This document shows positions 2,551 to 64,000 of a stretch of DNA of 64,000 nucleotides, piece after piece. The notes below the pieces were generated by a model. The model did no database searches. It had not been told where the DNA came from and saw nothing but the letters and a program-made list of their open reading frames with translations. The stretch comes from a virus, in IMG/VR virus record IMGVR_UViG_3300021185_003122, positions 16,260 through 80,259 of that record; one strand, given 5' to 3'. A program made the position numbers and the translations under genes. Within the stretch, counting starts at the first letter, position 1, and every line of letters begins with the position of its first letter.

Positions 2551-2712
2551 ATGATAAAGTTAGACGTAAACATAGGGGATACAATCCTAATGGGTAAGTT
2601 TAAAAATAAACGAGTTAAAATAAAAACTATAGAGTACGATGAGTTTGGTATGCCTCTCATCAATGGCAAACCTGGTTGTACTTTTAGAATGGTTCCTAAT
2701 CCAAGAAAATGA
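2551..2712 (+). CDS. small hypothetical protein (53 aa)
   Basis: MIKLDVNIGDTILMGKFKNKRVKIKTIEYDEFGMPLINGKPGCTFRMVPNPRK; ATGA overlap with next gene; below ORF-track cutoff. Confidence 0.7.
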   Translation: MIKLDVNIGDTILMGKFKNKRVKIKTIEYDEFGMPLINGKPGCTFRMVPNPRK

Positions 2713-2897
2713 GTCAAAGTTTTATTATTAGTGCTACTGTATTTGTTATCATAATGGTGATCTTCCACATCGTTAAAGATATCTTTCTCTCTACTTACCT
2801 TAGCTCTAGTATGCGCACCAGAGTTAACAGAAGGTGGCTTATAAGTACGGCAATAGGTTTAGTTATACTATATCTTGTATACGGTACTAACTACTAA
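2709..2897 (+). CDS. small membrane protein (2 TM)
   Basis: Two hydrophobic stretches; operon context. Confidence 0.65.
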   Translation: MSQSFIISATVFVIIMVIFHIVKDIFLSTYLSSSMRTRVNRRWLISTAIGLVILYLVYGTNY

Positions 2898-2900
2898 TAT

Positions 2901-3134
2901 ATGAAGAAGCTAATAGAATATATCTTTATAGGTCTTCTTATTATGTTATTTATCTTTGCAGCCTCATGTACTGATGATAATCTAATATGTTCTAAAGGAG
3001 AAGTAAATAATGGTGTTGTATGTGCAGAGATATATCAACCTATAAGAGCACCCGATGGTACTATATACTCTAATTCATGCTATGCAGAAGCAGATGGATG
3101 GGATAATAGCTGTTTAATATTAATCAATATATAA
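2901..3134 (+). CDS. lipoprotein with Kazal-like protease-inhibitor domain
   Basis: Signal peptide plus FAASC; CAEIYQPIRAPDGTIYSNSCYA resembles Kazal CxxxYxPVCGxDGxTYxNxC. Confidence 0.6.
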   Translation: MKKLIEYIFIGLLIMLFIFAASCTDDNLICSKGEVNNGVVCAEIYQPIRAPDGTIYSNSCYAEADGWDNSCLILINI

Positions 3135-3392
3135 ATATATACATATATATAACCTATATCACTAAAAATCATAAGCTAGAGGAAAATGAGACAAGCTCAC
3201 CCGAGCTCCTTACGAGCCCTTTAGGGAACAATACCGGCACTGTTATATCAATGTGACGTCAATATTACAGCAACCGGCTATCATCCCAGACGGAAGTATG
3301 AAAACCGTCCTATGTTTTTTTCTGGTGAGGTAGGAAAGGAATTATATATAAATAAATTAATACCTATATATAATCCTCTCTCTATTATATTA

Positions 3393-3857
3393 TTATTTAA
3401 CCAACCACAATCTATTATTAATATTAATCTTTTCTTTAATTAACATACCACTTCTTCTACACCAATTTTCAAACCTATCATTATAATCATTTACATTCCA
3501 CCTTCCACTTCTAAAATTATATAACAAACCAAATAAATTATTATTATCAAACCTATTCATAAATTCACTTAATAATACCTTTTTATTATCACCAATATAT
3601 TTCTTTAATATATCTTTAAATAATATATCCATATTATTATTCCCATATACCTTTTTATTCTTCACAACAATTACATCATATTTCTTTCTATTCATATAAT
3701 TATAATCCACTTCAACACAACATATATCATTATAACCTTCTAATTCATAATAATCATTCCATTTAACATCTTTAAATTTAACAATATCATTTCTAACATT
3801 ATCAAATTCATAACCTTTTTCAACAAAATAATTTAATACTTTTTCAAATCTTTTCAT
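3393..3857 (-). CDS. hypothetical protein encoded without cytosine (no A/P/T/Q/H)
   Basis: 154-aa ORF, own promoter at 3894-3925, AAAAGT-ATG start. Confidence 0.8.
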   Translation of the reverse strand: MKRFEKVLNYFVEKGYEFDNVRNDIVKFKDVKWNDYYELEGYNDICCVEVDYNYMNRKKYDVIVVKNKKVYGNNNMDILFKDILKKYIGDNKKVLLSEFMNRFDNNNLFGLLYNFRSGRWNVNDYNDRFENWCRRSGMLIKEKININNRLWLVK

Positions 3858-3893
3858 ACTTTTTAATTTTAATTATTATTAATTTTTATACTA

Positions 3894-3925
3894 TAAATAT
3901 ACAATTTTTATTTCAATTTACAAAC
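3894..3925 (-). promoter_or_regulatory. C-free variant of the early promoter
   Basis: GTTTG...ATTGTATATTTA; the C of the usual TTC(T/G)TATATTTA is absent. Confidence 0.7.
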
Positions 3926-3947
3926 TTTTTTAACATTTATTTTTAAA

Positions 3948-4364
3948 TTATTTATCATTTAAATAAATTTCCAAACCATCCATTAAACATTCTTCTTTTC
4001 CACTTATCACAATTCCACCAAATTCTTCCCTATTCTCTCCACACTTAATAAAATTAATCAACAAACTATTCATTTTATTATATTCAATATACCATTCTTC
4101 ACTATCATCACTCATATTCATAACAACAATATTTCTATCATCATTTCTTTCATACCTTCCAAATTCATCAATAATATATTCATACCCTTCATCAATACAT
4201 TCATTTTTAAAATCATTATACCAAATATCAAATATCTTATCATTCAATACAACATCTTCAAAATCTTCTTCACATCTACTTCCAAAATATAATTTAATAT
4301 ATTTTCTTTCAACACCATTTTTTAAAACCTCATTTCTTAATAATTCATTTTTAATCATTTCCAT
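3948..4364 (-). CDS. acidic hypothetical protein encoded without cytosine (no A/P/T/Q/H)
   Basis: 138-aa ORF downstream of promoter 4415-4446. Confidence 0.8.
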   Translation of the reverse strand: MEMIKNELLRNEVLKNGVERKYIKLYFGSRCEEDFEDVVLNDKIFDIWYNDFKNECIDEGYEYIIDEFGRYERNDDRNIVVMNMSDDSEEWYIEYNKMNSLLINFIKCGENREEFGGIVISGKEECLMDGLEIYLNDK

Positions 4365-4414
4365 ACTTTTTAAATTTAAATTAATTAATATAATATTCCC
4401 TTTTTATATTTATA

Positions 4415-4446
4415 TAAAGATAAGAAATAAAATTGTAACTACAAAC
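4415..4446 (-). promoter_or_regulatory. early promoter of the C-free unit
   Basis: GTTTG...TTCTTATCTTTA; the last coding-strand C (4419) lies inside the -7 box. Confidence 0.75.
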
Positions 4447-4465
4447 ATTTTATTAATATATTTGC

Positions 4466-4488
4466 TAATTTATAATCAATATAAATTA
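4466..4488. promoter_or_regulatory. palindromic operator-like site
   Basis: TAATTTATA-N5-TATAAATTA; related copy at 7463-7485 at the same distance from its promoter. Confidence 0.45.
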
Positions 4489-4496
4489 AAAATAAA

Positions 4497-4528
4497 GTTG
4501 GCTATATGAAATCTTATTCGTACATTTA
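4497..4528 (+). promoter_or_regulatory. divergent plus-strand promoter with no convincing gene
   Basis: GTTG-N20-TACATTTA preceded by TTCG. Confidence 0.55.
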
Positions 4529-4649
4529 GGTCATGATTTGTATTCAAAATTTAACTCTTAAATTATATAATAGTAGCTCTAAACCTACTATGGGAGTAAG
4601 ATGGGAAGGGAATACGAAATGCTTGATAGGCAGTTTCTTGATATACTGA

Positions 4650-4961
4650 TTAAGCAGCCAAAGAGCCTGATTCCGGAAGGATAGAGGCATCCACTAAACT
4701 TAAAGTATAAGTAGTCTTCTGAGACATCATATCAAATGTATACAAAGAGAGGCTAGTACGTCCAACCTTATTGACGTTCATACCACTAATACCATTCCAG
4801 ACACTATAGGACATTTTATTCTTATAACCCTCATAAGCTGATACCTTATACTCTTTTCCGGCATATGATATCTTAATCATTTCACCGTCCTTAAGGCCAT
4901 ATATAGCTTTAATGATTGGAGCGGCTTTCTTAACTTTATCTGAATATTTTAACTTTCTCAT
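4650..4961 (-). CDS. hypothetical protein
   Basis: 103-aa ORF, promoter at 4985-5016. Confidence 0.7.
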   Translation of the reverse strand: MRKLKYSDKVKKAAPIIKAIYGLKDGEMIKISYAGKEYKVSAYEGYKNKMSYSVWNGISGMNVNKVGRTSLSLYTFDMMSQKTTYTLSLVDASILPESGSLAA

Positions 4962-6489: not shown

Positions 6490-6801
6490 TTATTCTTCAT
6501 ATAATTCATTACCGTTAACATCAAAATGATAACTATATCCTCCTTGCGAATCTCTAATATCTAATTTACAAGCAACATTCTCAAACGGAACATTCTTATC
6601 ATCCTCTATACTAAAGAAAGATTCATCTACATTCCAATCTCCTTCTTCATACTCTTTCCTTATCATATCATTATCATACAATCCAATAATCATTCCTCCA
6701 TCAGCATATTCAAACTCATCATGCATTCTGAATTTCAAATCACCAATACTAATACTTTCAATTCTTTCTTTACTACTTTTTTCTACAACAACATTTTTCA
6801 T
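6490..6801 (-). CDS. acidic hypothetical protein, C-poor coding sequence
   Basis: 103-aa ORF, promoter at 6824-6855. Confidence 0.7.
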   Translation of the reverse strand: MKNVVVEKSSKERIESISIGDLKFRMHDEFEYADGGMIIGLYDNDMIRKEYEEGDWNVDESFFSIEDDKNVPFENVACKLDIRDSQGGYSYHFDVNGNELYEE

Positions 6802-6855: not shown

Positions 6856-7137
6856 TTATTTAGTAATTATTTCAATAAATCTTCCCCACTCTTTATTATA
6901 ATCCTCAATCAAATCATAAGCACAATCATCATCCATACTGAAGAGAATATCAAACATCTCATCATCATTCTCACCTGCATAAAATGCTGGTCTGTCTTCA
7001 AATGCTTCTGAAACTTTATCAAACGTTTCCTTATCAACATTTTCTAAAATCTTTACATCTTCCGCATCATCCCCCCAAAAGAGAGCAGTATTAGCTTTTA
7101 ACTTTAAATCTTTAATAACTTTTCTTGAATCTGTCAT
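6856..7137 (-). CDS. acidic hypothetical protein
   Basis: 93-aa ORF, promoter at 7171-7202. Confidence 0.7.
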   Translation of the reverse strand: MTDSRKVIKDLKLKANTALFWGDDAEDVKILENVDKETFDKVSEAFEDRPAFYAGENDDEMFDILFSMDDDCAYDLIEDYNKEWGRFIEIITK

Positions 7138-7194
7138 AACCTTTATTTTTTATCTTTTAATTATTATACCTAAATATATGATTCTTTTATCGAA

Positions 7195-7389
7195 CTAGCA
7201 ACTTTCTTTTAAGTTATTTTTAAAAACTTTTGAATCGAAAAATAAATGACCAGCCAAATCTTCAGTATTATTAATACCAGCTTCTTCTGCTTCTAATACA
7301 ATTAAATTCTTTTCATCTTCAGTTAACCAATCAATCAAGTTAATTTTTAAAATTTCCTCTAAACCTTTTTTAAATTCTAATAATATCAT
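7195..7389 (-). CDS. hypothetical protein
   Basis: 64-aa ORF, promoter at 7412-7443. Confidence 0.65.
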   Translation of the reverse strand: MILLEFKKGLEEILKINLIDWLTEDEKNLIVLEAEEAGINNTEDLAGHLFFDSKVFKNNLKESC

Positions 7390-11451: not shown

Positions 11452-12627
11452 TTATATTAAATTTGCTGCTTTATTTACTTTCATAAATAATCTATCAATA
11501 ACAGGAGCATGACCACAATTTTCAACACATAAAATACATTTGCCATCTTCTATAGATTTATCCCATCCTTTATAAAAGAAAGAATCAAACGTTTTAAAGA
11601 TATCTGAGTATTCAGTACTGTTTAAGTTTACTTTATCAGGTCCTCCTACTCCTTGAAGTAGTTGATTAGGAATTTCTGAACCAGCAGCATTATCTGCTAG
11701 AGCATATCCTGTATAACAACATGGAAGTAATACTCCGTTAGGAGTAAGGTATAGACCTTTATGCTTATCACTATCAACTTCACATTGAATTGAAGTATTA
11801 TCTAAATGAGAATATTTAGAGTAATCAATATCCATAGGTTTGTATTCAGGAAGTTTATTGTACTTTAAAATTTTATTTACATCAATTGAGTCACTTCCTT
11901 TTTTAATCTTCTTCATGCTTTTAGATAAATGAGATTTAGGAAGAGATATACTATAAACCTTTTTACCTTCTTTATCATATACAGGAGTATCCCATGTAAG
12001 ATTATTAACTTGATCTTCCATACCTAATGATCTTTTAGGAGCAAAAAACTTAAAACCAAGATTAGTAGATAATTTTTTAGCATCATCTATCTGATGTTCA
12101 TTATGTTCAAATGTAATAAAGTCCCACTGAGCTGTTCCACCATTATCAATAAATGCTTTTACATTGTCCATTAGTTTAGACCATTTAACATTTCTTCTAT
12201 AAAGGTGATTAGTATCTTCTAGTCCATCTATTCCAAAAATAACTAAATGAGATTTAAATAATTTAAGATAAGAAGCTAACTCTTTCCAGAATTTAGGATT
12301 ACGATTTCCTCCATTAGAATTAACTGATATGTGCATATCCTTTCTAATATTAGCTACATAACCAATTATATCTAAAATATATGGGTTAGAACAAGGATCT
12401 CCATAGTCTCCACATAATTTTAACTCTTTTACTTTTTTAATTATGTTTGGACCAAGCCATTTATCTAAATTTTCAACAGTTAAGTCTTCTAATTTAAGTT
12501 GAGGATGTTTTACAGGAGTTCCTGGAATAAATCTAGCACATATAGGACAAGCGGCATTACATCTAGTTGTTGCCTCAATATGAATGTAGTATTCTACTTC
12601 TGATCTATTATGGGAATTAGTCCACAT
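11452..12627 (-). CDS. radical SAM protein with C-terminal SPASM/twitch-like domain
   Basis: CNAACPIC motif; C-terminal C...PCC...CILCVENC. Confidence 0.85.
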   Translation of the reverse strand: MWTNSHNRSEVEYYIHIEATTRCNAACPICARFIPGTPVKHPQLKLEDLTVENLDKWLGPNIIKKVKELKLCGDYGDPCSNPYILDIIGYVANIRKDMHISVNSNGGNRNPKFWKELASYLKLFKSHLVIFGIDGLEDTNHLYRRNVKWSKLMDNVKAFIDNGGTAQWDFITFEHNEHQIDDAKKLSTNLGFKFFAPKRSLGMEDQVNNLTWDTPVYDKEGKKVYSISLPKSHLSKSMKKIKKGSDSIDVNKILKYNKLPEYKPMDIDYSKYSHLDNTSIQCEVDSDKHKGLYLTPNGVLLPCCYTGYALADNAAGSEIPNQLLQGVGGPDKVNLNSTEYSDIFKTFDSFFYKGWDKSIEDGKCILCVENCGHAPVIDRLFMKVNKAANLI

Positions 12628-13424
12628 TAATTACTTAGAGGAGCTTTTATAGATGGATGACTTTTGTAATTAATTAAATCTACATCGAAGTCTCCTGTAT
12701 AAATATTAAAGCAAACAACTTTAGCTTCCGGAAGGTCATAAGAATATCTGTCTAATTGCTTTTCTGCTTGCTCTAAATGATTGGTATATAAATGAACATC
12801 TCCAAAGTTGCCTATCAGCTCTCCAGGTTCTAATCTAGTCTCTTTACATAGTAACAACAGTAACAAACCGTAACTACTAATGTTAAACGGTACTCCTAAG
12901 AATAGGTCAGCACTTCTTTGATTCCACATAAGAGAGAGCTTACCATCTGCTACATAACATTGAAAAGAGTAATGGCATGGAGGAAGAGTCATCTTATCTA
13001 AATCTTCTACATTCCAACTATCAACCAAATGTCTTCTACTATCTGGATTGCTTATAATTCCTGTAATCAGATTCTCTAGCTGATCAATACCATTTATGTC
13101 TCTCCATTGCTTACCGTATATAGGTCCTAACTCTCCATCTGTTCTACCAGACTTCTTATAATCACCATCCCATATCTTACAGTTATTATCTTGAAGATAC
13201 TTAATATTAGTATCACCTCTTAAGAACCATTTCAACTCAGTAACCATAGTCTTAAATGCAATCTTCTTAGTAGTCAAGATAGGAAAACCATCTGACATAT
13301 CATGTCTGATTGATGCTCCGAAGATAGATTTAGTACCTGTTCCGGTCCTATCAGTTTTAACAACTCCTCTAGTAAGAACTTGTTTGAGAAGTTTCTGATA
13401 GTCGTTGTCTAAACTATTAGCCAT
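12627..13424 (-). CDS. thyA: thymidylate synthase
   Basis: DRTGTGT, LPPCH, QRSADLFLGVPFN (dUMP-specifying Asn), GDVHLYTNH. Confidence 0.97.
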   Translation of the reverse strand: MANSLDNDYQKLLKQVLTRGVVKTDRTGTGTKSIFGASIRHDMSDGFPILTTKKIAFKTMVTELKWFLRGDTNIKYLQDNNCKIWDGDYKKSGRTDGELGPIYGKQWRDINGIDQLENLITGIISNPDSRRHLVDSWNVEDLDKMTLPPCHYSFQCYVADGKLSLMWNQRSADLFLGVPFNISSYGLLLLLLCKETRLEPGELIGNFGDVHLYTNHLEQAEKQLDRYSYDLPEAKVVCFNIYTGDFDVDLINYKSHPSIKAPLSN

Positions 13425-13653: not shown

Positions 13654-14073
13654 CTATATCAACGAGGAATTTGGTTTAAGTTTAGTCCCCTCAAAGTCAA
13701 AATCTTCTATGCCATACTTATCATATTGATCTAGAGGAAGATTAATTAACTTAGCTACTTCTATATAGTCTACCGTTATTTCTTCATTCTCTTTTATAAG
13801 TTTAGTACTTATTAAGAATATATTATTACCTAGGAGAGACACCTTGCTATTAGGAGAGCTACTATGATTAGCATACCTTGCTATAGGAATAGATTCTATC
13901 CATCCATCATATAGAACTCTACCTTCTATAATAGGAATAAGATCCTTACTTAAATAAAATCCAATATTAGTTTCTGGAATGATGTTATAAGAGGCTAAAA
14001 GTCCTTTACCTCTTGGAGGAGTATCTCCAACTCTAAATAATACTTTTTGCTTGTTCAAAATGCTCTTCTTCAA
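13654..14073 (-). CDS. SET-domain protein (putative lysine methyltransferase)
   Basis: GKGLLA, RYANHSSSPN, IKENEEITVDY. Confidence 0.85.
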   Translation of the reverse strand: MKKSILNKQKVLFRVGDTPPRGKGLLASYNIIPETNIGFYLSKDLIPIIEGRVLYDGWIESIPIARYANHSSSPNSKVSLLGNNIFLISTKLIKENEEITVDYIEVAKLINLPLDQYDKYGIEDFDFEGTKLKPNSSLI

Positions 14074-14623
14074 AAAATATAATTAAAGCATACCTGCTTC
14101 CTTCAGTAACTTCAGTTACTAAATGTTCATAAGTAGGAGGAAACATAATACAGTTACCTAATTCTCTTCCTGCATCTCCATAGGTAGTCATTTTCAAAGT
14201 ACCTCCATTATATTCATCTGAGTCAGATAATTGAGCAGAAAAAGACCTATAGATTATTTGGCTTCCATATTTGGAGAAGTCAACATGCTTTGTTAACTTA
14301 TGACCGATTCCATACTTCATTATTTTGATAGTAGGACAGGAGCTGATGCCCCAATCCTGTAATCTATCTACTATAAAATCTTTGAGTGTTTGGTCTTCGG
14401 TTTCAATCCAAGTAGCGTTACTATCCTTTCGCCATCTTACAATAAGAGTACCATCAGCATTAACTTCTTCTTCTCCAATCTCTCTATTGTACTTAGCTCT
14501 TCCTTGTTTGATAGTATCTACTAAAGTGAGAGTATCATGTCCCTCAACCTCTTTAGAATTATCATAAAAACTTCTTATATACGCACAGTCTTCTGGCGAG
14601 AATAAAACCTTTTGTTGAAACAT
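14033..14623 (-). CDS. 2OG-Fe(II) oxygenase (prolyl-hydroxylase-like)
   Basis: Y...HVD...YNGG...FP...HLVTEVTEGSRY. Confidence 0.85.
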   Translation of the reverse strand: MFQQKVLFSPEDCAYIRSFYDNSKEVEGHDTLTLVDTIKQGRAKYNREIGEEEVNADGTLIVRWRKDSNATWIETEDQTLKDFIVDRLQDWGISSCPTIKIMKYGIGHKLTKHVDFSKYGSQIIYRSFSAQLSDSDEYNGGTLKMTTYGDAGRELGNCIMFPPTYEHLVTEVTEGSRYALIIFFEEEHFEQAKSII

Positions 14624-26713: not shown

Positions 26714-26887
26714 TTATCCAAACAGCATAGTTTTAGAATTAGCTGAACCTTCTTCTAATATTTTATGCTCTACGATGGATCTGTTTCTTTTCCATTGTTC
26801 GATAGACCACTCTAATCTATCAGTAGTAAGCTCTATTTCTACCTTTTTTCCGTCAGCGTGAGTAAATTCTACTATGTACTTTCTCAT
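26714..26887 (-). CDS. small hypothetical protein (57 aa)
   Basis: MRKYIVEFTHADGKKVEIELTTDRLEWSIEQW...; ATGA overlap. Confidence 0.6.
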   Translation of the reverse strand: MRKYIVEFTHADGKKVEIELTTDRLEWSIEQWKRNRSIVEHKILEEGSANSKTMLFG

Positions 26888-28092
26888 AATTTAATTAAGT
26901 CTTCTGTATAAGTTTTAAGCTTATGTATAGTAATAAATAGATTTCCTAACTGGAATTTACCTTCTTGTCCACTATCATCTAATATTTGAGTAAGCTTCTG
27001 CATATATTCAAAATCAGTATTGTTAAATAGTTTACCATTTACTTCAACTATTACATCATTAGTACATAAGTGAGCTAGTGAATGAACTCTATCCTGTAAA
27101 TTAATTTTAGTGTTAGGTTGCTCCTCTAGAATATAACTAGCAAAGTCTGAGTCTATACATATACAGTCACCCCATGGCTCTAATGCATGAAGAAGATTCT
27201 TGTTAGAGTTTTTTATTCTTATACCTATGTTATACTTATTAGGAACTATAGGTTTCATTAACGCATCATGCATGACAAAATGACCCCACTTACGAATAAA
27301 GTTACGAGTTGATCTTTGATTCTGTGCTAGCCATTCCGGACTGTCTTCATATATGTTTTTAGCCTTATCCAAAGTATTTCTTCTACTTCCTCTAGAAGTC
27401 ATATGGTATACAAATCCATCCCATACTTGCTTAAACTTAACTCCGTTCAATTGAAATCTATTAAATATATCTGAGTCTTCTTTTGATTGAGGAGCATATA
27501 AAGGATCATGTCCTCCTATCTCTTGAAAGTCTTTTCTATAAAATGCCCATGGAGCAAATATACCTTCAGTTACTTTAGAAGCATTCTTCATAGAAGGTAA
27601 CTGCTTAAGGAACTCCTCCTCTATAAATTCTTCTGGTTCTACTCCTCCGCTCCATAGTATCTTCTCTGGACCGTCTGGGTGTAATGGAGGTTCTATTCTA
27701 GTCAAAGATACTATAGTCTTCTCTTCTATCTCTCTTTCAACAGCATCTAATGCTCCAGGAGCTAAATACATATCGGCATGATAAATCATAGCGATATCAT
27801 TTGTTGCTACATCATTAACTAATGTATCATATAGTATTGTATGTCCTAATCTATCTGGTCCTTCATTTCTATGAGCTTTAAATAATGGATCTTTATCCAT
27901 CATCTCTATACACCAATCCCAAGTACCGTCTGTCGAAGCATCATCAGCTACACAAATTTCTACCTCATGGTTACCTTGATTCTTTCTTATAGCATCATAA
28001 GCCCACTTAAGATACTTTAAATTGTTCCTTCCAGGTTGTATTATACTTATCTTCATGGTAATATTTTTTATAATTGTCTTTAGCTGCTGCAC
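26884..28092 (-). CDS. GT2 glycosyltransferase
   Basis: ISIIQP, ADDASTDGT, HAD, EDSD; true start probably the internal MKISII. Confidence 0.85.
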   Translation of the reverse strand: MQQLKTIIKNITMKISIIQPGRNNLKYLKWAYDAIRKNQGNHEVEICVADDASTDGTWDWCIEMMDKDPLFKAHRNEGPDRLGHTILYDTLVNDVATNDIAMIYHADMYLAPGALDAVEREIEEKTIVSLTRIEPPLHPDGPEKILWSGGVEPEEFIEEEFLKQLPSMKNASKVTEGIFAPWAFYRKDFQEIGGHDPLYAPQSKEDSDIFNRFQLNGVKFKQVWDGFVYHMTSRGSRRNTLDKAKNIYEDSPEWLAQNQRSTRNFIRKWGHFVMHDALMKPIVPNKYNIGIRIKNSNKNLLHALEPWGDCICIDSDFASYILEEQPNTKINLQDRVHSLAHLCTNDVIVEVNGKLFNNTDFEYMQKLTQILDDSGQEGKFQLGNLFITIHKLKTYTEDLIKL

Positions 28093-28942
28093 TACAAAAG
28101 TTATAGTAAGCAGTATCTTCTTTTAATTTACGAATAATTTCTCTGGCTTCAGGAATATCTCCTAACTTTATTGTAGTATTAGGATGGCACTTCTGTTGAG
28201 TATCTAATCCTTCGTACCCTATACATGGTATACCTAAGTAAGCACAGTTAAGAGCAAATGTTCCTGCTGCATGAGTTCTCATCAAATGAACTGCATACTT
28301 AAAGTTATTGAGTTCTTTAATCCATTCAACCCAATTCATATAAGGAAGCTGGGTAATGCCTAGTTGAGCTTCTCCTTCTTGTCTTCTACCCATCATAGGG
28401 GAGTAGATTGGTTCTTCTAATGCAGAAGCTACTACAAATGAATCAAACCCTCCATACCAACTAACAAAGTTACCTCCTATCATTACTCCTTTTCTGTCAA
28501 CTCTAGGTAAATCTTTTATAGAGTCTTCTATCATAAGAGTAGGAAGTATTCTAACATCAGGATGATCTGTAATACCTTTGTAATATTCTTTATCTATTTC
28601 ATTATGAGCAAATAATATATCAGCTTTTCTGATAGTATTGTAATACCAAATTTGTTCGACTAAAGTATAGTCCTGAAAGCACCATTGAGGTCCTTCTTGC
28701 ATTATAGCTATCTTATCTGCATATGTTCTCATCTTATCGAATGTATTGTTAGCCATCCAACTACTTACATTCTTCTTAGGTATAACACACAATGCTAAGT
28801 CATATTTCTCAGAAGGAGTATGAGTATAAGGAAAACAATCAGCTTCTAAAGCACAAGGCCATGCTTGCTCTGTTCTCATCATTTCAAAGTTTCTGGGTAT
28901 CTTACCCATCATACCCATCTCAGTTACATAACATATTCTCAT
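28007..28942 (-). CDS. putative GT-B glycosyltransferase
   Basis: C-terminal GTFALNCAYLGIPCIG; cluster context. Confidence 0.5.
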   Translation of the reverse strand: MRICYVTEMGMMGKIPRNFEMMRTEQAWPCALEADCFPYTHTPSEKYDLALCVIPKKNVSSWMANNTFDKMRTYADKIAIMQEGPQWCFQDYTLVEQIWYYNTIRKADILFAHNEIDKEYYKGITDHPDVRILPTLMIEDSIKDLPRVDRKGVMIGGNFVSWYGGFDSFVVASALEEPIYSPMMGRRQEGEAQLGITQLPYMNWVEWIKELNNFKYAVHLMRTHAAGTFALNCAYLGIPCIGYEGLDTQQKCHPNTTIKLGDIPEAREIIRKLKEDTAYYNFCSAAAKDNYKKYYHEDKYNTTWKEQFKVS

Positions 28943-29781
28943 AATGACTTAATATAATCTATAATATTATATGTTGGTTTATATCCTAAGACATCTTTTG
29001 ATGTTGATATATCAGCTAGACCTTTTGGTCTATCTCCTCTCCTAGCATCTATAAATTCGAAATGATGATCGAATGCTGCTGCTATTTCTAAAACGCTATA
29101 GTCTTCACCAGTTCCTAATTGAAACTCCTGGTTACATATATTGTCTCCTGCTAGTACTAATCCATTTACTATATCATCTACATGAGTAAAATCTCTTCTT
29201 TGAGTTCCGTCTCCTGTAATGGTAAGAGGTCTTCCTTCTTCTCTTTGTCTCTTAAAAATATTAATTACTGATTGCCATTCATTATCCCAAGTGTCAGTTT
29301 TAGGACCATACACATTATAGAAGTAACATATGTTATATCTAATATCATACCAGTCTCCATATCCTTGTGTTAGTTTAGCTATCATTGATTTGAAAAAAGC
29401 ATAAGGTGAATGCATCTCACCAGGGTATGATAATTTAGTAGATGATCCTGCATACACTATCGGTATATTATTCTTTCTTATAGCTTCTAATAACTTAAAG
29501 CTTCCTAATATGTTATAAGTAAAAGCAGTAGATATATCATCAAATGAAGGAACTACTTTTGAATACTCTCCTAGGTGATAAACTAAATCATAATCATCTT
29601 GTAATGCTTCTATCGATTGAATGGTCGATATAGGATGATAATTTGCTCCTTCTATATGATTCTCAACTTTACCTGCAGAGTAATTATCCCAGCTGGTTAC
29701 TTTATGTCCATCTTTTACTAATCTTTCTATTAGATTAGATCCAACTGCTCCAGCTCCTCCGGTGACTAATATTTTTTTCAT
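28939..29781 (-). CDS. NAD-dependent epimerase/dehydratase
   Basis: TGGAGAVG, YAFFK, GDGTQRRDFTHV. Confidence 0.9.
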   Translation of the reverse strand: MKKILVTGGAGAVGSNLIERLVKDGHKVTSWDNYSAGKVENHIEGANYHPISTIQSIEALQDDYDLVYHLGEYSKVVPSFDDISTAFTYNILGSFKLLEAIRKNNIPIVYAGSSTKLSYPGEMHSPYAFFKSMIAKLTQGYGDWYDIRYNICYFYNVYGPKTDTWDNEWQSVINIFKRQREEGRPLTITGDGTQRRDFTHVDDIVNGLVLAGDNICNQEFQLGTGEDYSVLEIAAAFDHHFEFIDARRGDRPKGLADISTSKDVLGYKPTYNIIDYIKSL

Positions 29782-29782
29782 C

Positions 29783-30634
29783 TTAAAAGTATTTTTTATC
29801 TCCGTTAGGAAATATGTATTTAGTATTTCTTATATGTGTTTCTTTAAAATTAGGATAAGGAGTAAGAATAGTATTCTCTTTTCCGTTTCCTAATACTGCA
29901 TCATTTATTCCGGCATGATAACCTAAATTAAATTTAGCATAATACTTTACTGCTAGTTGCTCTCTCAAAGACAATTTTAAATCAGCAAAGTTTGTTTTAT
30001 TTTTAAATAACTCTCCCCAATCAGTACCCTCTAAATCAAACTCACTATAGTAAAAGACTGGATAGTCTTTATACTTAGTAGCTTCATCATAAAGAAAGGT
30101 ATCAAATTCCCATCTACCTTTTAAGTTATTTATTCTACTACCAAAAAGTAAACACCCGTATACCTCACCATTAGTAATTTCATTTACTTTATCTATTTCC
30201 TCTTGAGTAAAGTACAATTTTGGAGTACAGTCTTCTTCTTTTAACTCTTCTGGAGTAAATCCAAATCTATGTAGTATCTTTTCAGCTAAAGGAACTTCGT
30301 TATCTAATTGAGCTCTAAAATGATCATTTACTCCTTCACCATTATATTCATCTACTAACTCTACATTAGGGTTATTATCATAAATTAAATTGATATAACT
30401 AGAAGGATCAAAGTCAGGACTATAAGACCAATTCATATAGTTTGGTGCAAGTGACTTTAATAACTTAGGAGAAGGAATTTTAAACTCTACTTCTGGGTAA
30501 TGTTTTTTAAGCACTTCAAATACTCCGCTAATGTTAGACCAATCGCCTATACTGTAGCTATGATATCTGGTAAAGAAAAATGTATCTTTAAGTTGATATC
30601 TTGGAGTATCTTTTTCGTACTTTATACCAATCAT
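29783..30634 (-). CDS. putative glycosyltransferase (GT9-like)
   Basis: IGD motif, NNPNV, PKLYF; cluster context. Confidence 0.45.
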   Translation of the reverse strand: MIGIKYEKDTPRYQLKDTFFFTRYHSYSIGDWSNISGVFEVLKKHYPEVEFKIPSPKLLKSLAPNYMNWSYSPDFDPSSYINLIYDNNPNVELVDEYNGEGVNDHFRAQLDNEVPLAEKILHRFGFTPEELKEEDCTPKLYFTQEEIDKVNEITNGEVYGCLLFGSRINNLKGRWEFDTFLYDEATKYKDYPVFYYSEFDLEGTDWGELFKNKTNFADLKLSLREQLAVKYYAKFNLGYHAGINDAVLGNGKENTILTPYPNFKETHIRNTKYIFPNGDKKYF

Positions 30635-31743
30635 TAACCTTCATATTTGTTTACTACGTCAACAATCTTATTTCTATCTTCTTCTGTTACCCACCATCCA
30701 CAAGGAATGTTAATCATCTTTCTACTAAACTCATCTAATCCTGGTTGAGGTCTTCTATAGTTCTTAAAGACAGAGTACTCATCATTTCTAACATGTGCAA
30801 CGTCTGATGCTATATCATTAGCTTTAAGATAATCTTGAAACTTTCTTTTATCTTCTACTAAAATAGAATAAAGCCAGTAACTAGATGTTCCATTAGATAC
30901 TCTTCTAGGAATAACAACGTTAGGGTTAGAAATATTTTCATCATAGAACTTACCATTGTTAACATGTCCATCAATAACATTATCAATGTACTTTAAATTC
31001 TCTATTCCAATAGCTGCATTGACATTATTCATATGAAACTTATAACCAGATTCAGTTATATCTTGTTCCCATCTAGATGCTGGTGCTTCACCAGGAGGTG
31101 ATTTGTAATGTCTATCTAATCCAAACCATCTTAATTTTCTAGCTCTTTCAGCATCTGCTTCTGACTTACATGCAATTGCTCCTCCATCTACACATGTAAG
31201 ATGTTTGACTGCTTGAAAAGAAAAGCATACATAATCACTATGACTACCAATTCTTATATCTTTGTAAGTAGACCTTAATGCATGAGCTGCATCTTCAATA
31301 GTTTTGATACCATTAGCTTGAGCAAGATTATTTATTTCATCTAACTCACATGGCTGACCTGCCCAATGGACCATCATGATTGCTTTAGTATTGTCATCTA
31401 TCAACTCTTTGATAGAATTAACATCTATGTTTCCAGTATCAGGCTCTACATCAGCAAATCTAATCTCTACTCCCATATTATGAAATGGTTCATTAGTTGC
31501 CATACAAGTCATAGCTGTTGATATAACATTATCGCCTGGTTTAAAGTCACACATATGAGCTGCAAGAGTAAGAGCTGATGTTCCGCTATTAACTAATCTT
31601 ACGTTAGGGTTACCAATATACTCTCCAAATTGTTTTTCAAATTCATCAGAGTATTCTCCTTCGGTTAAGAAACCTGTGTCAAATACTTTCTGTACTACCT
31701 CCCCTATATTAGGAGGAGTATGTACTTTCATTAGTGGTATCAT
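30634..31743 (-). CDS. DegT/DnrJ/EryC1/StrS aminotransferase
   Basis: NSGTSAL, EDAAHA, SFQAVKHL. Confidence 0.92.
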   Translation of the reverse strand: MIPLMKVHTPPNIGEVVQKVFDTGFLTEGEYSDEFEKQFGEYIGNPNVRLVNSGTSALTLAAHMCDFKPGDNVISTAMTCMATNEPFHNMGVEIRFADVEPDTGNIDVNSIKELIDDNTKAIMMVHWAGQPCELDEINNLAQANGIKTIEDAAHALRSTYKDIRIGSHSDYVCFSFQAVKHLTCVDGGAIACKSEADAERARKLRWFGLDRHYKSPPGEAPASRWEQDITESGYKFHMNNVNAAIGIENLKYIDNVIDGHVNNGKFYDENISNPNVVIPRRVSNGTSSYWLYSILVEDKRKFQDYLKANDIASDVAHVRNDEYSVFKNYRRPQPGLDEFSRKMINIPCGWWVTEEDRNKIVDVVNKYEG

Positions 31744-32738
31744 TAATATTCGTATTTAGAGTTAACATTTAAAAAGTATTCTAACATTCTAATAATTCCA
31801 GTCTTAAAGTCAACTGTTGGAATTATATTTGTTTGAGCTACTACTTTATCTATATTAGGACATCTTCTTAATGGTTCATCAGAAGGATAGTCATCAGGGT
31901 ACGAAATAAGATCATAGTTAGGTTCTACACCTAATGATTCGTAAAACTTATCAGCTAACTCAATCATATTTAATTCAGGAGATGGATTCCCTACATTATA
32001 AATCTCACCATCTTTACCAGATAGAAGCAACTGAGTAATCATCGCTATACCATCACCAGCATAACAGAATGTTCTAGTCTGTTTACCATCTCCGTATATT
32101 TTAATTTTTTCTTGACGTAAATGAGCTCTCATCCAATTTGATAAAACTCTATTGTCATTGATTCCCATATAGGTTCCATAGAAGTTAAATGGTCTTACTA
32201 CCTTTACCGGTACATTATATTCGTTGTAATAAATGTTACATAATGTCTCTAGTACTTGTTTTCCTATATCATAACAACTTCTATTACTCATTGTAGGAAT
32301 AGCTCCTATGTAAGTCTCTTTAGTAGGAATAGCTCTAGGGTCTGGAGTACCATAAACCTCACTAGAACTAAACATAATAACTGATTCAACGTTTTTCTCT
32401 CTAACATAATCAAGTACGTTACGAGTACCTATGTACGATATATCCATCGTAAGTACAGGCTGCTTCATATACTTCTCAGGGCTAGCTATACCTGCACAGT
32501 TAATAACATAATCATATCTAGGAAGACTCATCAAAGCCTCTTTATTATTTATGTCATGTTCTGGATTAATTGAAGGATCGAAAGCTAAGTACTCTACTTT
32601 CAAATGTTCGAATAAGTCTACAAACCAATTTCCTAAGAAACCATTTGAACCTATTAGTAAAACTGTTTTATTTTTAAATTGATCTACATCTACTCTTGAA
32701 GTAATACTATTTAGATCTTGTTCATTTACGTAATTCAT
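31743..32738 (-). CDS. UDP-glucuronate decarboxylase-like SDR enzyme
   Basis: GSNGFLG, SSSEVYG, RSCYDIGK, GDGKQTRTFCY. Confidence 0.85.
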   Translation of the reverse strand: MNYVNEQDLNSITSRVDVDQFKNKTVLLIGSNGFLGNWFVDLFEHLKVEYLAFDPSINPEHDINNKEALMSLPRYDYVINCAGIASPEKYMKQPVLTMDISYIGTRNVLDYVREKNVESVIMFSSSEVYGTPDPRAIPTKETYIGAIPTMSNRSCYDIGKQVLETLCNIYYNEYNVPVKVVRPFNFYGTYMGINDNRVLSNWMRAHLRQEKIKIYGDGKQTRTFCYAGDGIAMITQLLLSGKDGEIYNVGNPSPELNMIELADKFYESLGVEPNYDLISYPDDYPSDEPLRRCPNIDKVVAQTNIIPTVDFKTGIIRMLEYFLNVNSKYEY

Positions 32739-33177
32739 AATCTAGTTGCATTATTATACTATTGCCGTTATCTGTAATATAGGAACTATTTAGAATAAAT
32801 CCTAATTTTTTATATAGAGAGTATGCAATTAAATTATGCTCCATAACCTCTAATTTAAATACTTTTATACCGTACTCTTCATTTAAGTACTTCATAAACT
32901 CTTCATAAGCAGGAACAGATAGTTTTTTACCTCTATAGTCTTTATGTATATCTAATCCTATATAACAAGAGTCCTCTGTCCAGTTAGAAGTTCTAAAATA
33001 ACCTATCGGTTTATTTTCTAGTTGATATATAAAAAAGGGATTGTTATTATTCTCAAACCATTTATAACTTTCCTGCAGAGTATATGTCTGAGGGTTATGT
33101 AACATTTGATGACATTCATTCCTTACTGTGTTGAAGAATGGAATATCTGTAACAGTTAACTTTCTTATATTATTCAC
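32722..33177 (-). CDS. GNAT acetyltransferase
   Basis: YRGKK...N..A..LYKKLGF. Confidence 0.8.
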   Translation of the reverse strand: MNNIRKLTVTDIPFFNTVRNECHQMLHNPQTYTLQESYKWFENNNNPFFIYQLENKPIGYFRTSNWTEDSCYIGLDIHKDYRGKKLSVPAYEEFMKYLNEEYGIKVFKLEVMEHNLIAYSLYKKLGFILNSSYITDNGNSIIMQLDYELRK

Positions 33178-33985
33178 TTACCGCTCTACTACCAATTTCG
33201 TTCCAATCAGCTTCAGGTCTAACCTCTAAATTAGTCTTCCATGCTGCTTTTAATACATGCATGTCTACATTTTGCTTATCTGCTAATGACATAAAAGCAT
33301 TGATATCTTTTGGAAAACAAGCACCACCAAATCCCATCTTGCCGTCTGGTCCTGGTACTTGCATATGGCTATCGCCTACTCTACCATCTGCTGCAAACCC
33401 ATGCATGGCCGTTCTCCAATCGATGCCCATAGTATCTGCTAACCTCTTATACTCATTAAGCAGCGATACTTTCGTGGCAAAGAAACAGTTGTTCATGTAC
33501 TTAATGAACTCTGCTGTGGTAGAATCTGTATGAATAAAATGTCTATTCATAAATCTACCCTCATATAATTTTTGTACTTTATCAGTTAATTCTTTATCAC
33601 CACCAAATATAATTCTTGCCTGCATCATCATATCTAACTTAGCTATTCTCTCAGTAAGGAACTCAGGACTAAATACTATATTTAGTTCTGGATATTTCTC
33701 TTGTAGAGACGCTGTAGTACCTGGTAGTACCGTTGATTTAATAATGTATATAGGGCCTTTCCTTGCATGTGTAAAGACTGAGTCTATATATTTTGTATCC
33801 TGTGTACCGTCCTTAAACATAGGAGTAGGCACTGCTACAAATATAAAGTCTGCTGTATGTACTTCTTCTAAAGTGTTGAATGATCTCTTAGGATCTGTGT
33901 CGTAAATTAAAACTTTGTTTGATAAAGAGAATGCAAATGCTTGTGCTTCTCCAACAAAACCATTACCAATAATACCTACTTTCAT
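33170..33985 (-). CDS. ugd: UDP-glucose/GDP-mannose dehydrogenase family protein
   Basis: GNGFVG, KSTVLPG, PEFL, GFGGACFPKD. Confidence 0.85.
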   Translation of the reverse strand: MKVGIIGNGFVGEAQAFAFSLSNKVLIYDTDPKRSFNTLEEVHTADFIFVAVPTPMFKDGTQDTKYIDSVFTHARKGPIYIIKSTVLPGTTASLQEKYPELNIVFSPEFLTERIAKLDMMMQARIIFGGDKELTDKVQKLYEGRFMNRHFIHTDSTTAEFIKYMNNCFFATKVSLLNEYKRLADTMGIDWRTAMHGFAADGRVGDSHMQVPGPDGKMGFGGACFPKDINAFMSLADKQNVDMHVLKAAWKTNLEVRPEADWNEIGSRAVSE

Positions 33986-34512
33986 TAAAACATATCTGAT
34001 TTAGTTCGTGTAACTTTCTTCTTTTCTACTTTAGTAAAGAAGGTTCTTCTTATAATATAAGAAATATTTTCTAATTTAAATACAGATGCATCAGTTTTAA
34101 TTTGATTTATATACTGATCAATTGCATCGTTGTAATCTCTAATTATAATAACTCCACCTTTAGACATTCTAGGTAATAATGTCTTTACACCTTCATAGTT
34201 ATTATCTCCCAAATCTAACTGGGCTAATCCTATTGCTGGTAATGATAGAGGAGAGCTTCCTAATCGGTGTTTGATATAATCTCCTTTCTTATCTAATCTA
34301 TTTATAGACTCATTACATAAATCTTGAGCTTTCTGCCATATACCTTGATTGCCTCCTTCAAAAAGATCTACATAGATACTATCTCTTCTTTTAATTTCTT
34401 CAGATAACATTAGTTTGAATATCTCCCTAGCATCTCTACCAGTTCCAAATCCTAGGTCAACAAATATTCCATCAATGTTATCAGCCAGTTGGGCAATCTC
34501 TACTAGTTTCAT
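33985..34512 (-). CDS. TylF-like methyltransferase-fold protein
   Basis: FVDLGFGTG...GGVIIIRDY. Confidence 0.5.
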   Translation of the reverse strand: MKLVEIAQLADNIDGIFVDLGFGTGRDAREIFKLMLSEEIKRRDSIYVDLFEGGNQGIWQKAQDLCNESINRLDKKGDYIKHRLGSSPLSLPAIGLAQLDLGDNNYEGVKTLLPRMSKGGVIIIRDYNDAIDQYINQIKTDASVFKLENISYIIRRTFFTKVEKKKVTRTKSDMF

Positions 34513-34524
34513 GTATATAAATAG

Positions 34525-35154
34525 TTACGTTAAAGTATCGTAATAAGCATTTTGTTTCTCCTGTTTATCTATTTCTTTTGGATGGTAAAGAGATAGTTCT
34601 TCTTTAGCAGGTAATGGTGCATAAGTCTTAAAGCCGTCTAATACTTCATGGACTTTATTCTTCCATCTAATCTCTGGTTTGTTTTTCCAAATACGCCATT
34701 GATAGTCTGGATAGTTAACCCATCCTTTATCATCTACTTTCCAACCCCATTTAGTTATATGCTCTTCAGTTAAACCTTCTACTGTATTAACTCTAGGAAT
34801 TAAATAAACATCATTGTCAGGATTAGATTCTAGTATTATAGGTAGAGCTGTAAGAAGAGATTTATGAGGAAATTCATCTGCATCTATTTGAAAGATATAA
34901 TCACCATTGCAGTAATCAGTAAGCTGATTTTTCCAGTTAGCAAAATGACCATTGAAGTCTAAGCCTCTCCAAAACTGTATGTTTGGGTACTTATTTTGTT
35001 TCGTAAGCCAGGCAGCTATTTCTTCACTACCGTTTTTTTGATCATACAAGATAACTATTTCATCCTGCTGTCTTTTGTTCTTTCTTAAAAGTTCAACAAG
35101 CTTCTGAATTTCTACGAATTCATTACATACTGTTATTGCATAACTAATTACCAT
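34525..35154 (-). CDS. GT2 glycosyltransferase
   Basis: ISYAITVCNE, IDADE, VHE. Confidence 0.85.
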   Translation of the reverse strand: MVISYAITVCNEFVEIQKLVELLRKNKRQQDEIVILYDQKNGSEEIAAWLTKQNKYPNIQFWRGLDFNGHFANWKNQLTDYCNGDYIFQIDADEFPHKSLLTALPIILESNPDNDVYLIPRVNTVEGLTEEHITKWGWKVDDKGWVNYPDYQWRIWKNKPEIRWKNKVHEVLDGFKTYAPLPAKEELSLYHPKEIDKQEKQNAYYDTLT

Positions 35155-35605
35155 AGAAATCTATAACCTCTAATGCATCCATAAAGTCTTTTGGAGCAAA
35201 CTTCTTAGCTTGCTTAACATCCATTTTAAATGTTTGACCCTCTGGGAATTTACCTGATTTAATTTCTTCTTCAGTTAACGGAATAGCTTTAACTGCAGAC
35301 CATTGCCAGTCTTTAGTAGATGTTCCATCAACAAACACCATTCCTTTTTCTGGAAGAGTGATAGTAGCAGGAAACCATATTCTGCCTTCCTTATCTTTAT
35401 GCATTAAGTCTTTATATAGTTCAGGAGATGTTTCTAATAAGTCTTGTACTGGTTTAGAACCTTCTGTCATAAGTGTAGAAGTTGTATAACCACTACCAAA
35501 ACATAACCATGTTTTTATCTCTTGATTGTCTTGATTGAAGGTCTGTTCATAACAAGCATTGCTACCGAAAGGACCTTCTACTAATTGATCTTTTTCTAAT
35601 TTCAT
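35144..35605 (-). CDS. hypothetical protein
   Basis: 153-aa ORF in operon. Confidence 0.7.
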   Translation of the reverse strand: MKLEKDQLVEGPFGSNACYEQTFNQDNQEIKTWLCFGSGYTTSTLMTEGSKPVQDLLETSPELYKDLMHKDKEGRIWFPATITLPEKGMVFVDGTSTKDWQWSAVKAIPLTEEEIKSGKFPEGQTFKMDVKQAKKFAPKDFMDALEVIDFYGN

Positions 35606-36873: not shown

Positions 36874-36874
36874 T

Positions 36875-57425: not shown

Positions 57426-58718
57426 TTAATTTAAATTAAACAAGCTTTTTATTCTACTTGTTATTGGTCTTTTAGCATGAACAGGTATATTATATTTTTC
57501 AATAAGTAGTCTACTAAATATTACCCAGTTCTCTATAGTAAATAAGTATTCATTATTATCGGTCATACCTAACAGTTCTTTGTACTGACCTATGGTCTTA
57601 GGTTTAAAAGTAAAATCATTATTAAGTAACTTATAAAGGTTATTCGGAATAGGTGATGTAAATTGATCCCTCCAAAATGGGGTATCGTCTTTTATACTTA
57701 AATAATGATATTTGAGATGGATCATTATCTGATCATTTACTCGTCTGAAATAATCATTGTATTCCTTATGTTTAACATTCTGTAAAGTTCTACTTTTGGT
57801 AAAGTAGAGTAGTTGTTGACATACAGTCATTAATGATGTAGCTTCAAGAGGTTCAAAAAATCCACCACTTAATCCAATAGCAAAAGTATTACCTCTATAT
57901 AAATCTTTATAGTAACCAGATTCAAAATGTATAATTCTACTACTAAATCTATTGAATAATTTTTGACCCATATATTCCTCTAACTCTGCTCTAGCATCAT
58001 CGTCAGATATTCTAGTGTTATCGAATACATACCCACAACCATAACGATGTTGTAAGGGTATCTGCCATAACCATCCATGTTTCATAGCAACAGCATCTGT
58101 GTATGTTTTAGCAAGAGGATTATCAGATTTTCTTTCAATTGAAAAAGGTATTGCACTATTAACAGGAAGGTATTTTTTAGTTGATATCCATTTAGTATTA
58201 TATTCCTTACCAATAAGCAATCTAGCAAAACCAGAGCAATCAAAATAATGTTCAGCGGATATGTTACCGGTTTTTTCTAAATAAACTCTTGTTATATTTT
58301 CACCATTTCTTTCGCACCCAGTATACTTATCTATAATATGAATTATACCTCTTGATTTGGCTATACCTTTGAGAAAAGCAATAATTAAAGCACTATCAAA
58401 ATGATAAGCATAATTTATTCTTCTATTTGTAAAAAATAAGTTTTGAAAAGAATCATTATTACCAGACCAATTAGTAAACCTAACTCCAAATTTTTTAGTT
58501 CCATTAGTTTTACGTAGAAATTCTTCCTCTGTGATACCTAAACTCTTTAGTATACCAACTATTTGAGGAGTAGTACCCTCTCCTGCTCCTACTGATGGTA
58601 TTTTGTCACTTTAACTAAAAGCTATAGTCTGCCCAGGGTTATACTTCTGCATGTATAATGCAGTAAGCCAACCAGCTGTTCCTCCACCAATAATTAAAGC
58701 TGCATAATGATTATTCAT
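57426..58718 (-). pseudogene. tryptophan-halogenase-family flavoprotein with in-frame TAA at codon 36 (pseudogene or sequence error)
   Basis: IIGGGTAGW...SVGAGEGT...DCSGF...GWLWQIP...FEPLEAT in one frame; stop at 58611-58613. Confidence 0.75.
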
Positions 58719-63516: not shown

Positions 63517-63999
63517 CTAATGCCCTTCTCTCCAGTTATCAGCTATCTCTGGAGGTGCTTTTAAAGTAACTCCGGGTAGTTTAGTTGTGTTTTCCATAAT
63601 CTCTTGTACATAAGGTGCAAACGTTTCTGCATCCTTTTCATCAATATTAATAATCAACTGGTCATGTACTTGAGCTTGAACTATAGCATCTATACCTAAT
63701 TCTTTAGCCTTCAAGTTAATCTTTAAAGCTGCTCTATTTACTACAGCAGCAGCTAATGACTGAAGCTGGAAGTTAAGACAGTTATTGAGTCCGTTACGAT
63801 AGTCTCTATAAGCTTGAGTAACTTGATCTCTAGGAGAAATAGTCTTAACTATCTCCCCATCTTTCTTAACATACTTAGGAGGTATCTGAGATTCTAGCTC
63901 TTTACGGAATCTCCAATCCATCATTCTATCACCAACCTTACTATAAAGCTTCTGAACTTTAGGTAAATGACGTACTCTACCGACATGGTTTTCAATCTG
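63517..63999 (-). CDS. polA: family A DNA polymerase, C-terminal part
   Basis: GRVRH, NFQLQSLAA, QVHDQL (motif C); open to the window end. Confidence 0.85.
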   Translation of the reverse strand, partial: QIENHVGRVRHLPKVQKLYSKVGDRMMDWRFRKELESQIPPKYVKKDGEIVKTISPRDQVTQAYRDYRNGLNNCLNFQLQSLAAAVVNRAALKINLKAKELGIDAIVQAQVHDQLIINIDEKDAETFAPYVQEIMENTTKLPGVTLKAPPEIADNWREGH

Positions 64000-64000
64000 A

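Follow-up and report, generated by a model that had tools for sequence, protein, structure and literature searches.

A transcription unit written without cytosine in a marine phage related to Flavobacterium phage immuto

Nucleic acids that lack one letter are familiar from the bench. The G-less and C-less cassettes of in vitro transcription are laboratory constructs of 20-400 nucleotides (nt), without genes, that can be copied without one nucleoside triphosphate (NTP) and that stop the polymerase where the missing letter first occurs. Viruses, for their part, also write sequence without the target of a hostile factor, and the counter-defence genes expressed first are the best protected; restriction-site avoidance, the logic of T7 gene 0.3 and of T5 first-step transfer, CpG depletion against ZAP and the footprints of APOBEC enzymes are examples. 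To our knowledge, these cases delete motifs or dinucleotides, and none of them a whole letter from a transcript. Here we describe a transcription unit from which a whole letter is gone, in the viral record IMGVR_UViG_3300021185_003122 of IMG/VR (80,259 nt; CheckV 45% complete). The window, by which we mean the entire 64,000-nt stretch that was analysed, comprises bases 16260-80259 of that record, and positions below are those of the window. At 3340-4418 it holds a tract whose message has no C and whose template strand has no G. Like the synthetic cassettes, this tract lacks a single letter and could be copied without the corresponding NTP, and its RNA, as read from the sequence, is free of C from +1 to a defined stop, here an arm of the terminator. 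Unlike them, such tracts are natural, 0.56-1.9 kb long, encode conserved proteins and have been selected in many lineages. Long stretches without one nucleotide are rare in natural nucleic acids (PMC6526412), and a full-text literature search found no natural letter-free genes described, as the original prediction, made from this sequence alone, had supposed.

The unit and its signals are laid out as follows.

3340..4418, minus strand: C-free transcribed tract (template strand without G), 1079 nt.
4415..4446, minus strand: first promoter of the unit, with GTTTG at 4446-4442, a 19-nt spacer and the -7 box TTATCTTTA at 4423-4415.
3948..4364, minus strand: gene F2, 138 amino acids (aa), isoelectric point (pI) 4.3, net charge -17.
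3894..3925, minus strand: internal promoter, with GTTTG at 3925-3921, a 19-nt spacer and TATATTTA at 3901-3894.
3393..3857, minus strand: gene F1, 154 aa, pI 9.2.
3331..3384, minus strand: terminator hairpin, -21.4 kcal/mol, z -4.5, 0 of 200 shuffles as stable.
3324..3339, minus strand: C/U-rich stretch CCTTTCCTACCTCACC, which overlaps the base of the descending arm and extends just past the hairpin.

A scan for base-free runs over the whole record bore out the G-free plus strand that had been claimed: between 3340 and 4418 it contains 402 A, 468 T, 209 C and not a single G. The longest other G-free run in the full 80,259-nt record measures 102 nt, and runs without A, without C or without T reach at most 47 nt. 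At the G frequency of the window (13.3%), simple arithmetic gives a chance of ~1e-67 for a G-free run of 1079 nt, and the earlier estimate (1e-49, at 10% G) was right in its order of magnitude. Both open reading frames (ORFs) are intact, as predicted, and use 25 of the 27 C-free codons, with AGT as the only serine codon, AGA and AGG as the only arginine codons and TTA and TTG as the only leucine codons; Ala, Pro, Thr, Gln and His occur in neither protein. The absence of C extends to the non-coding parts of the tract, namely the 54-nt leader, the 90-nt spacer and 53 nt of the trailer. Because leaders, spacers and trailers are likewise C-free, selection at the level of codons or transfer RNAs is rejected. 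The proposal that the constraint acts on nucleotides is further supported by the way in which the tract follows the transcription unit and by diverged homologues that are C-free as well.

The borders of the tract are those of transcription. Between 800 and 13,600, at least ten small genes of the minus strand are preceded by the motif GTT(T/G)(G/C)-N19-TATATTTA, with the ATG following ~25-40 nt later; we take this repeated promoter of the phage to be of the Bacteroidota type (-33 TTTG / -7 TAnnTTTG). The leaders of the genes behind it are A-rich and lack a Shine-Dalgarno sequence. On the sense strand, the last C of our unit (4419) lies within the -7 box of the first promoter. In fact, wherever the 5' edge is complete (~35 distinct loci), the -7 box contains the last C or directly adjoins it, the edges taking forms such as TTATC/TTTA, C/TATATTTAG, CCC/TATATTAAGG and TATATTGC/ (the slash marks the start of the tract), and C is common immediately upstream of the border. 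The internal promoter obeys the rule as well: its spacer is a C-to-T version of the consensus, gtaagtCgaaataaaaatCg becoming gtaaattgaaataaaaattg. Likewise, the internal promoters of multi-gene tracts are all C-free; none is followed by a strong hairpin, a stem-loop being carried only by the last gene of a tract.

At the other end, the ascending arm of the hairpin, GAGAGG plus an A/U-rich run, pairs with a descending arm made of an A/U-rich run and CC..UUUCC, and the first Cs of the RNA (3339 and 3338) are precisely descending-arm bases that pair with the Gs of the ascending arm. At least 25 loci keep this design (-16 to -25 kcal/mol), and some of the changes between them are compensatory. Where a gene of a third family, F3, is the last of its tract, another hairpin of the type GGGTTTG...CAAACCC takes over and again supplies the first Cs. 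Relatives carry comparable CCTCC-type stretches, and a C/U-rich run follows the hairpin in most loci. Since the edges of the tract coincide with the -7 box and the terminator arm, the C-free state spans everything from the start site to the last transcribed bases, that is, one transcription unit.

Could this be an accident of one assembly, or a converted template? Relatives of the 154-aa protein F1 are encoded at 8 loci on IMG/VR contigs and at 63 on JGI metagenome contigs, with identities down to 43%, and around each of them the sense strand is C-free. The 62 distinct copies of F1 contain 4 C in a total of 27,705 nt, and the 44 distinct copies of F2 contain none in 16,434 nt. Pairwise comparison of six F1 genes, down to 65% nucleotide identity, yields 748 A/G, 647 A/T and 278 G/T differences, while C is involved in none. 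Among cluster representatives drawn from a collection of 5.8 billion proteins, 116 of 120 for F1 and 46 of 50 for F2 are without Ala, Pro, Thr, Gln and His, and the F1 representatives hold four such residues in 18,937. Most of the stretch is present in at least nine independent marine DNA studies. The property is common to all relatives compared and is therefore no artefact of assembly or conversion, a converted template being ruled out by the many independent samples and the conserved proteins; nor is this a single copy that has lost its Cs to T amid homologues of normal composition. As judged from these comparisons of sequence, the three-letter transcription unit is kept by selection.

Parts of both ORFs, and nothing of 4391-4887, are found in contigs from four marine RNA runs. 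This hints only weakly at expression, since such contigs carry neither strand, ends nor level and DNA carry-over is possible. The strain variants in these RNA-library contigs comprise, on the plus strand, 28 T>C changes and no A>G change. One contig from an oligo-dT run (X15) has a run of T before 3996 on the plus strand, which corresponds to A's beyond that point on the sense strand and may reflect either internal priming on an A-rich message or polyadenylation.

The unit is a modular cassette of small accessory families, each gene with its own promoter, shuffled among related marine phages. The genes fall into three families, F1 to F3, plus a single 73-aa extra, F4. Tract length follows gene number: ~560-610 nt for one gene, 950-1050 nt for two, 1365-1560 nt for three and 1890 nt for four. 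The orders observed are F1, F2-F1, F3-F1, F2-F3-F1, F2-F1-F3, F1-F3, F2-F1-F2-F3 and F2-F1-F4. In architecture, and in architecture only, this recalls the promoter-early/stem-loop (PeSL) cassettes of T4-type phages, reportedly described by Arbiol and colleagues in 2010: small early genes with early promoters of their own, an end stem-loop and a shuffled order. The present cassettes differ from them by the exclusion of a letter, by promoters of Bacteroidota type and by a stem-loop placed only at the last gene of the tract. Seven of the eight IMG/VR contigs with F1 (L007-L020) start or end within the C-free tract or within ~1 kb of it; these ends are probably assembly breaks caused by the variable order of the cassette, the repeated promoters and the low complexity, although they may mark a genome end. 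F1 is also encoded on a 183,831-nt ENA contig (homologue P0121).

How strict is the exclusion outside the unit? About 2 kb upstream of it lies a paralog of F3 behind its own promoter, and beyond that two more genes of a similar kind.

6490..6801, minus strand: F3-family paralog outside the tract, 103 aa, 12 C (3.8%).
6856..7389, minus strand: two further small acidic genes with early promoters, C strongly reduced (7.4% and 5.6%).

Copies of F3 inside tracts contain 0-1 C, against 10-26 C per ~306 nt in out-of-tract paralogs, a contrast in which position outweighs family. The small early-promoter genes of the neighbourhood hold 3.8-10% C versus ~14% elsewhere, the depletion falling mainly on codon positions 1 and 3. 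Given this gradient in the neighbours and the contrast within F3, the cost of C is graded, and it is absolute only inside this unit.

Other genes of the surroundings deserve a brief description. At 1470-1910 an early promoter precedes a 146-aa protein that is likely of the T5orf172/MUG113 (GIY-YIG-like) kind, an assignment made by eye, the Pfam match not being tied to this ORF. Three small ORFs on the plus strand (2551-3134), of which two have membrane-like segments, run towards the terminator of the C-free unit, and their homologues hold the same position in the relatives L011 and L012.

The proteins themselves resemble little that is known. F2 is predicted to fold with confidence (predicted local distance difference test, pLDDT, 90; predicted template modelling score, pTM, 0.84), its best structural Z in VIA-align being 4.5. 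For F1 the model reaches a pLDDT of 85; its N-terminal part is alpha/beta, and residues 67-154 align to winged-helix domains with Z 5-5.8 (VIA-align), so that the C-terminal half weakly resembles a winged helix. Against the PDB, Foldseek gave no match at E <= 0.001 for either model. Neither protein was assigned a family by Pfam or PHROGs, the ESM Atlas returned no usable match, and neither the tract nor F1 was matched among cultured phages by tblastn or blastn. A profile search with F2 among 1.84 billion representatives recovered only 10 clusters, most of them without the five residues whose codons require C. One distant homologue, P0172 (E 1e-11), uses Gln, Ala and Thr freely, which gives the F2 family at least one member outside the constraint. 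F3, like F2, is acidic, and enzyme inhibitors are frequent among small acidic proteins of this type. Most simply, F1-F3 would be counter-defence or takeover factors made while other messages fail.

What kind of phage carries this cassette? The genes of the window are all oriented on the minus strand, with baseplate genes downstream of the tract and, upstream, a long array of replication, sugar-nucleotide, GroEL/GroES and S-adenosylmethionine (SAM) synthetase genes. The closest cultured relative is Flavobacterium phage immuto (65% identity in GroEL); GroEL of the contigs G011, G012 and G016 is 79-81% identical. The genes of SAM synthetase, GroEL, GroES and the family-A DNA polymerase PolA lie in collinear order. 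The record breaks off within PolA.

63517..64000, minus strand: C-terminal part of the family-A DNA polymerase PolA (the "135-aa ORF"), truncated where the contig stops.

In the three nearest contigs the order runs GroEL-GroES-136 aa-PolA-QueF-DpdN-DpdA3-FolE. Because our record ends in PolA and its nearest relatives carry the set directly upstream, synteny makes it very probable that the phage has QueF-DpdN-DpdA3-FolE just past the contig end. The Pfam profile TGT (PF01702) was negative everywhere, but it also misses the annotated DpdA of immuto, a DpdA3 (MW353175.1, our G010, 34089-34883); these negatives were therefore discarded and the search was repeated with the immuto protein as query. 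DpdA3 was then found in five of five complete and 11 of 13 partial relatives (16 of 18). In immuto DNA no deoxyguanosine (dG) is detected by liquid chromatography-mass spectrometry, G being fully replaced by the 7-deazaguanine fdPreQ1, and the subfamily responsible for complete replacement, carried out after replication, is DpdA3 (bioRxiv 10.1101/2023.04.13.536721). The same study covers the modification and its enzymes and says nothing on transcription or on genes that avoid the modified base. Immuto belongs to the same phage group by GroEL, PolA and gene order, and it also has a 118-aa homologue of F2 (68330-68686), whose gene contains 5 C and follows the same TTCTTATCTTTAG promoter.

Several other genes of the window might at first sight modify bases: a radical SAM enzyme, two 2-oxoglutarate (2OG)-Fe(II) oxygenases, sugar-nucleotide and glycosyltransferase genes, the SAM synthetase and a fragment resembling a tryptophan halogenase. 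None could be tied to DNA. A thymidylate synthase (ThyA) of canonical appearance has the 391-aa radical SAM protein directly upstream of it and a 2OG-Fe(II) oxygenase nearby (11452-13424 and 14033-14623); no homologues of the radical SAM and oxygenase genes occur in the complete relatives. The block at 26884-38317 is devoted to sugar-nucleotide synthesis and glycosyl transfer (epimerases, a GDP-mannose dehydratase-like protein, UDP-glucose dehydrogenase, a DegT aminotransferase, GT1 and GT2) and is partly missing from relatives; DNA, the virion or the host surface may be what it acts on. The match of a 219-aa ORF (57426-58085) to tryptophan halogenase is confined to the C-terminal half of the enzyme (profile positions 258-414), and the ORF is either a fragment or a split gene. 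One ORF matches the Hint/Vint domain PF14623 (E 2e-15) and may contain an intein. With a 738-aa protein as query, no relatives were found.

Why would a phage give up a letter? The same pattern is expected from three targets: the G of the template, the C of the RNA (or the supply of CTP, cytidine triphosphate) and the C of the exposed non-template strand. Sequence fits the first two equally well. Kinship with the immuto group leads us to put the template G first, as a tentative leading reading, and RNA or CTP a close second, as a possibility that we regard as doubtful. A promoter of Bacteroidota type fires a message without C until the last bases of the terminator hairpin, from a strand that accordingly holds no G. 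According to the leading reading, each C in the RNA, hence each G in the template, would bring a modest, independent risk that the message is left unfinished. The cassette genes could not bear that risk, and selection would have purged every C at the cost of five amino acids. The risk would sit at template guanines, each of which the immuto-like group replaces, through DpdA3, with a 7-deazaguanine of the fdPreQ1 type. The template strand of the tract probably carries no modified base, and it would then be the sole stretch of the incoming DNA to be read from ordinary bases. It would stay readable whether the modified base slows the host RNA polymerase or is itself attacked or bound by an enzyme of the host, and the cassette proteins, as counter-defence or takeover factors, could be produced before anything else works. 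In vitro, mid-sized 7-substituents on 7-deazaguanine are the most inhibitory of the major-groove changes tested with the E. coli and B. subtilis RNA polymerases (PMC4838386).

A number of observations weigh against a hazard at the modified G. DpdA3 was not found on the 80-kb record, and its presence is inferred from synteny. Inhibition by the 7-substituents was exerted mainly at initiation and not at elongation (PMC4838386). Four complete relatives with DpdA3 have no F genes, no base-free run above 116 nt and no gene below 5.6% C; closer partial relatives likewise show no C-free genes. Campylobacter phage CP220 also has DpdA3 and 100% dADG (bioRxiv 10.1101/2023.04.13.536721); its C-free runs do not exceed 78 nt, and its most C-poor gene holds 6.4% C. 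Full replacement of G is thus not sufficient for the trait, five DpdA3 phages being without such genes. Within our phage, other genes behind the same type of promoter hold 9-17% C, and the Cs of the terminator are transcribed and paired. Moreover, C is the only letter that a message can lack completely, AUG and the stop codons requiring A, U and G, so which letter is missing does not, taken alone, implicate G. Taken together, the DpdA3 phages without C-poor genes, the early genes that contain C and the Cs of the terminator mean that the hazard would act per site and be modest, not absolute, and that it would matter only for these accessory genes. The earlier suggestion of a bulky modified G that stalls the host RNA polymerase therefore survives in part: kinship with the immuto-like DpdA3 group supports its premise of a modified G, and the relatives and CP220, which have DpdA3 and no C-poor genes, speak against a simple stall.

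A hazard in the RNA or in its substrate ranks a close second. CTP might be scarce or depleted, a chain terminator such as the 3'-deoxy-3',4'-didehydro-CTP (ddhCTP) made by viperin might be incorporated in its place, or a ribonuclease or toxin might depend on C; the cassette would then be the counter-measure and for that reason immune. Such a hazard predicts the same borders, from transcription start to terminator, with Cs only past the last stop codon, where failure is harmless. It also fits the trait being tied to certain accessory families and not to the DpdA3 group as a whole, and the graded depletion in the neighbouring genes is what a per-C risk would leave. CTP is the scarcest of the NTPs, and marine Bacteroidota include carriers of prokaryotic viperins. 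On the other hand, no such defence is tied to these hosts here, a literature search found nothing that links ddhCTP or CTP to C-poor phage genes, and F1-F3 show no similarity to known inhibitors in sequence and fold searches. Its occurrence within a lineage that replaces G would, moreover, be a coincidence. We see this explanation as possible, on the doubtful side.

A broader form of the template-G reading, which we consider unlikely, is that base-replacing phages keep "bootstrap" genes whose template is free of the replaced base. RNA polymerase ignores lesions in the non-coding strand, and a host factor would fail at the base or attack it: an RNA polymerase not adapted to it, or a base-excision or binding defence directed against 7-deazaguanine DNA. 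F2 and F3 would then be Ugi-like inhibitors of that factor, and a G-free template would be a general route to readable counter-defence genes on damaged DNA.

Evasion of Rho is improbable as the main cause. Rho loads on C-rich, G-poor naked RNA, so that a C-free message would escape early termination and the C/U-rich stretch past the hairpin, common to most loci, would be a deliberate Rho site. A related bias has been described: in bacteria with runaway transcription, purine-rich sense strands avoid Rho, which forms a barrier to foreign genes, and there too the composition of the sense strand is shaped by the fate of the nascent RNA and C is disfavoured (PMC13323073). That bias, however, is a genome-wide threshold (C < G), whereas here exclusion is total and confined to one unit. 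Targeting by Rho requires C > G over more than 150 nt (PMC13323073), and all genes of this phage already have G > C. The threshold being satisfied genome-wide, nothing would be gained by removing the last few Cs, and yet the F1 and F2 copies stay at zero across 44,000 nt, save for the 4 C in F1.

The exposed non-template strand is a very improbable target. A cytosine deaminase acting on single-stranded DNA, or spontaneous deamination during heavy transcription, would likewise affect the sense strand alone, within the transcribed region, and the loss might even be partly mutational. Conserved, covarying Cs nevertheless persist in the terminator arm that is transcribed and in the -7 box, whose strands are separated in the open complex, and F3 paralogs behind the same type of promoter keep their 10-26 C. 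That the proteins are conserved and confidently folded without five amino acids argues for long-term selection.

Least credible of all is the avoidance of restriction or recognition sites in the DNA that enters first, as for T7 gene 0.3 and the first-step-transfer region of T5: by simple reasoning a strand without G cannot hold a palindromic site that contains G or C, and the contigs that end at or near the tract might point to a genome end, but a cassette whose order varies and whose promoters recur explains those breaks equally well, the tract has an internal position in this record, with the metabolic array on one side, the baseplate genes on the other and the contig ends 19.6 kb and 59.6 kb away, C is frequent directly upstream, and site depletion, which would be independent of transcription signals, would not eliminate every G of one strand between borders that match a -7 box and a terminator arm to a few bases. 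Two further candidates fall at once: a C-free RNA would be more and not less targetable by Cas13b-type flanking-site recognition, as far as general knowledge goes, and avoidance of ultraviolet dimers is ruled out by a pyrimidine-rich template strand.

The three-letter gene set means that selection on the making of a message can override the amino-acid alphabet, with five residues sacrificed, and that the borders of a transcription unit can be delimited to a few bases from sequence alone. Natural C-free cassettes may find use as orthogonal expression units. A cultured system in which these ideas can be tested is at hand, namely immuto on Flavobacterium sp. LMO8. If the cause does lie at the modified G, the tract would give the first evidence of a transcriptional cost of a hypermodified phage base, or of its being a target of the host, and it would show the way that phages take round this. 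If it lies in CTP or ddhCTP, the unit would represent a novel way of evading nucleotide-based immunity. Both readings make F1-F3 prime candidates for counter-defence proteins.

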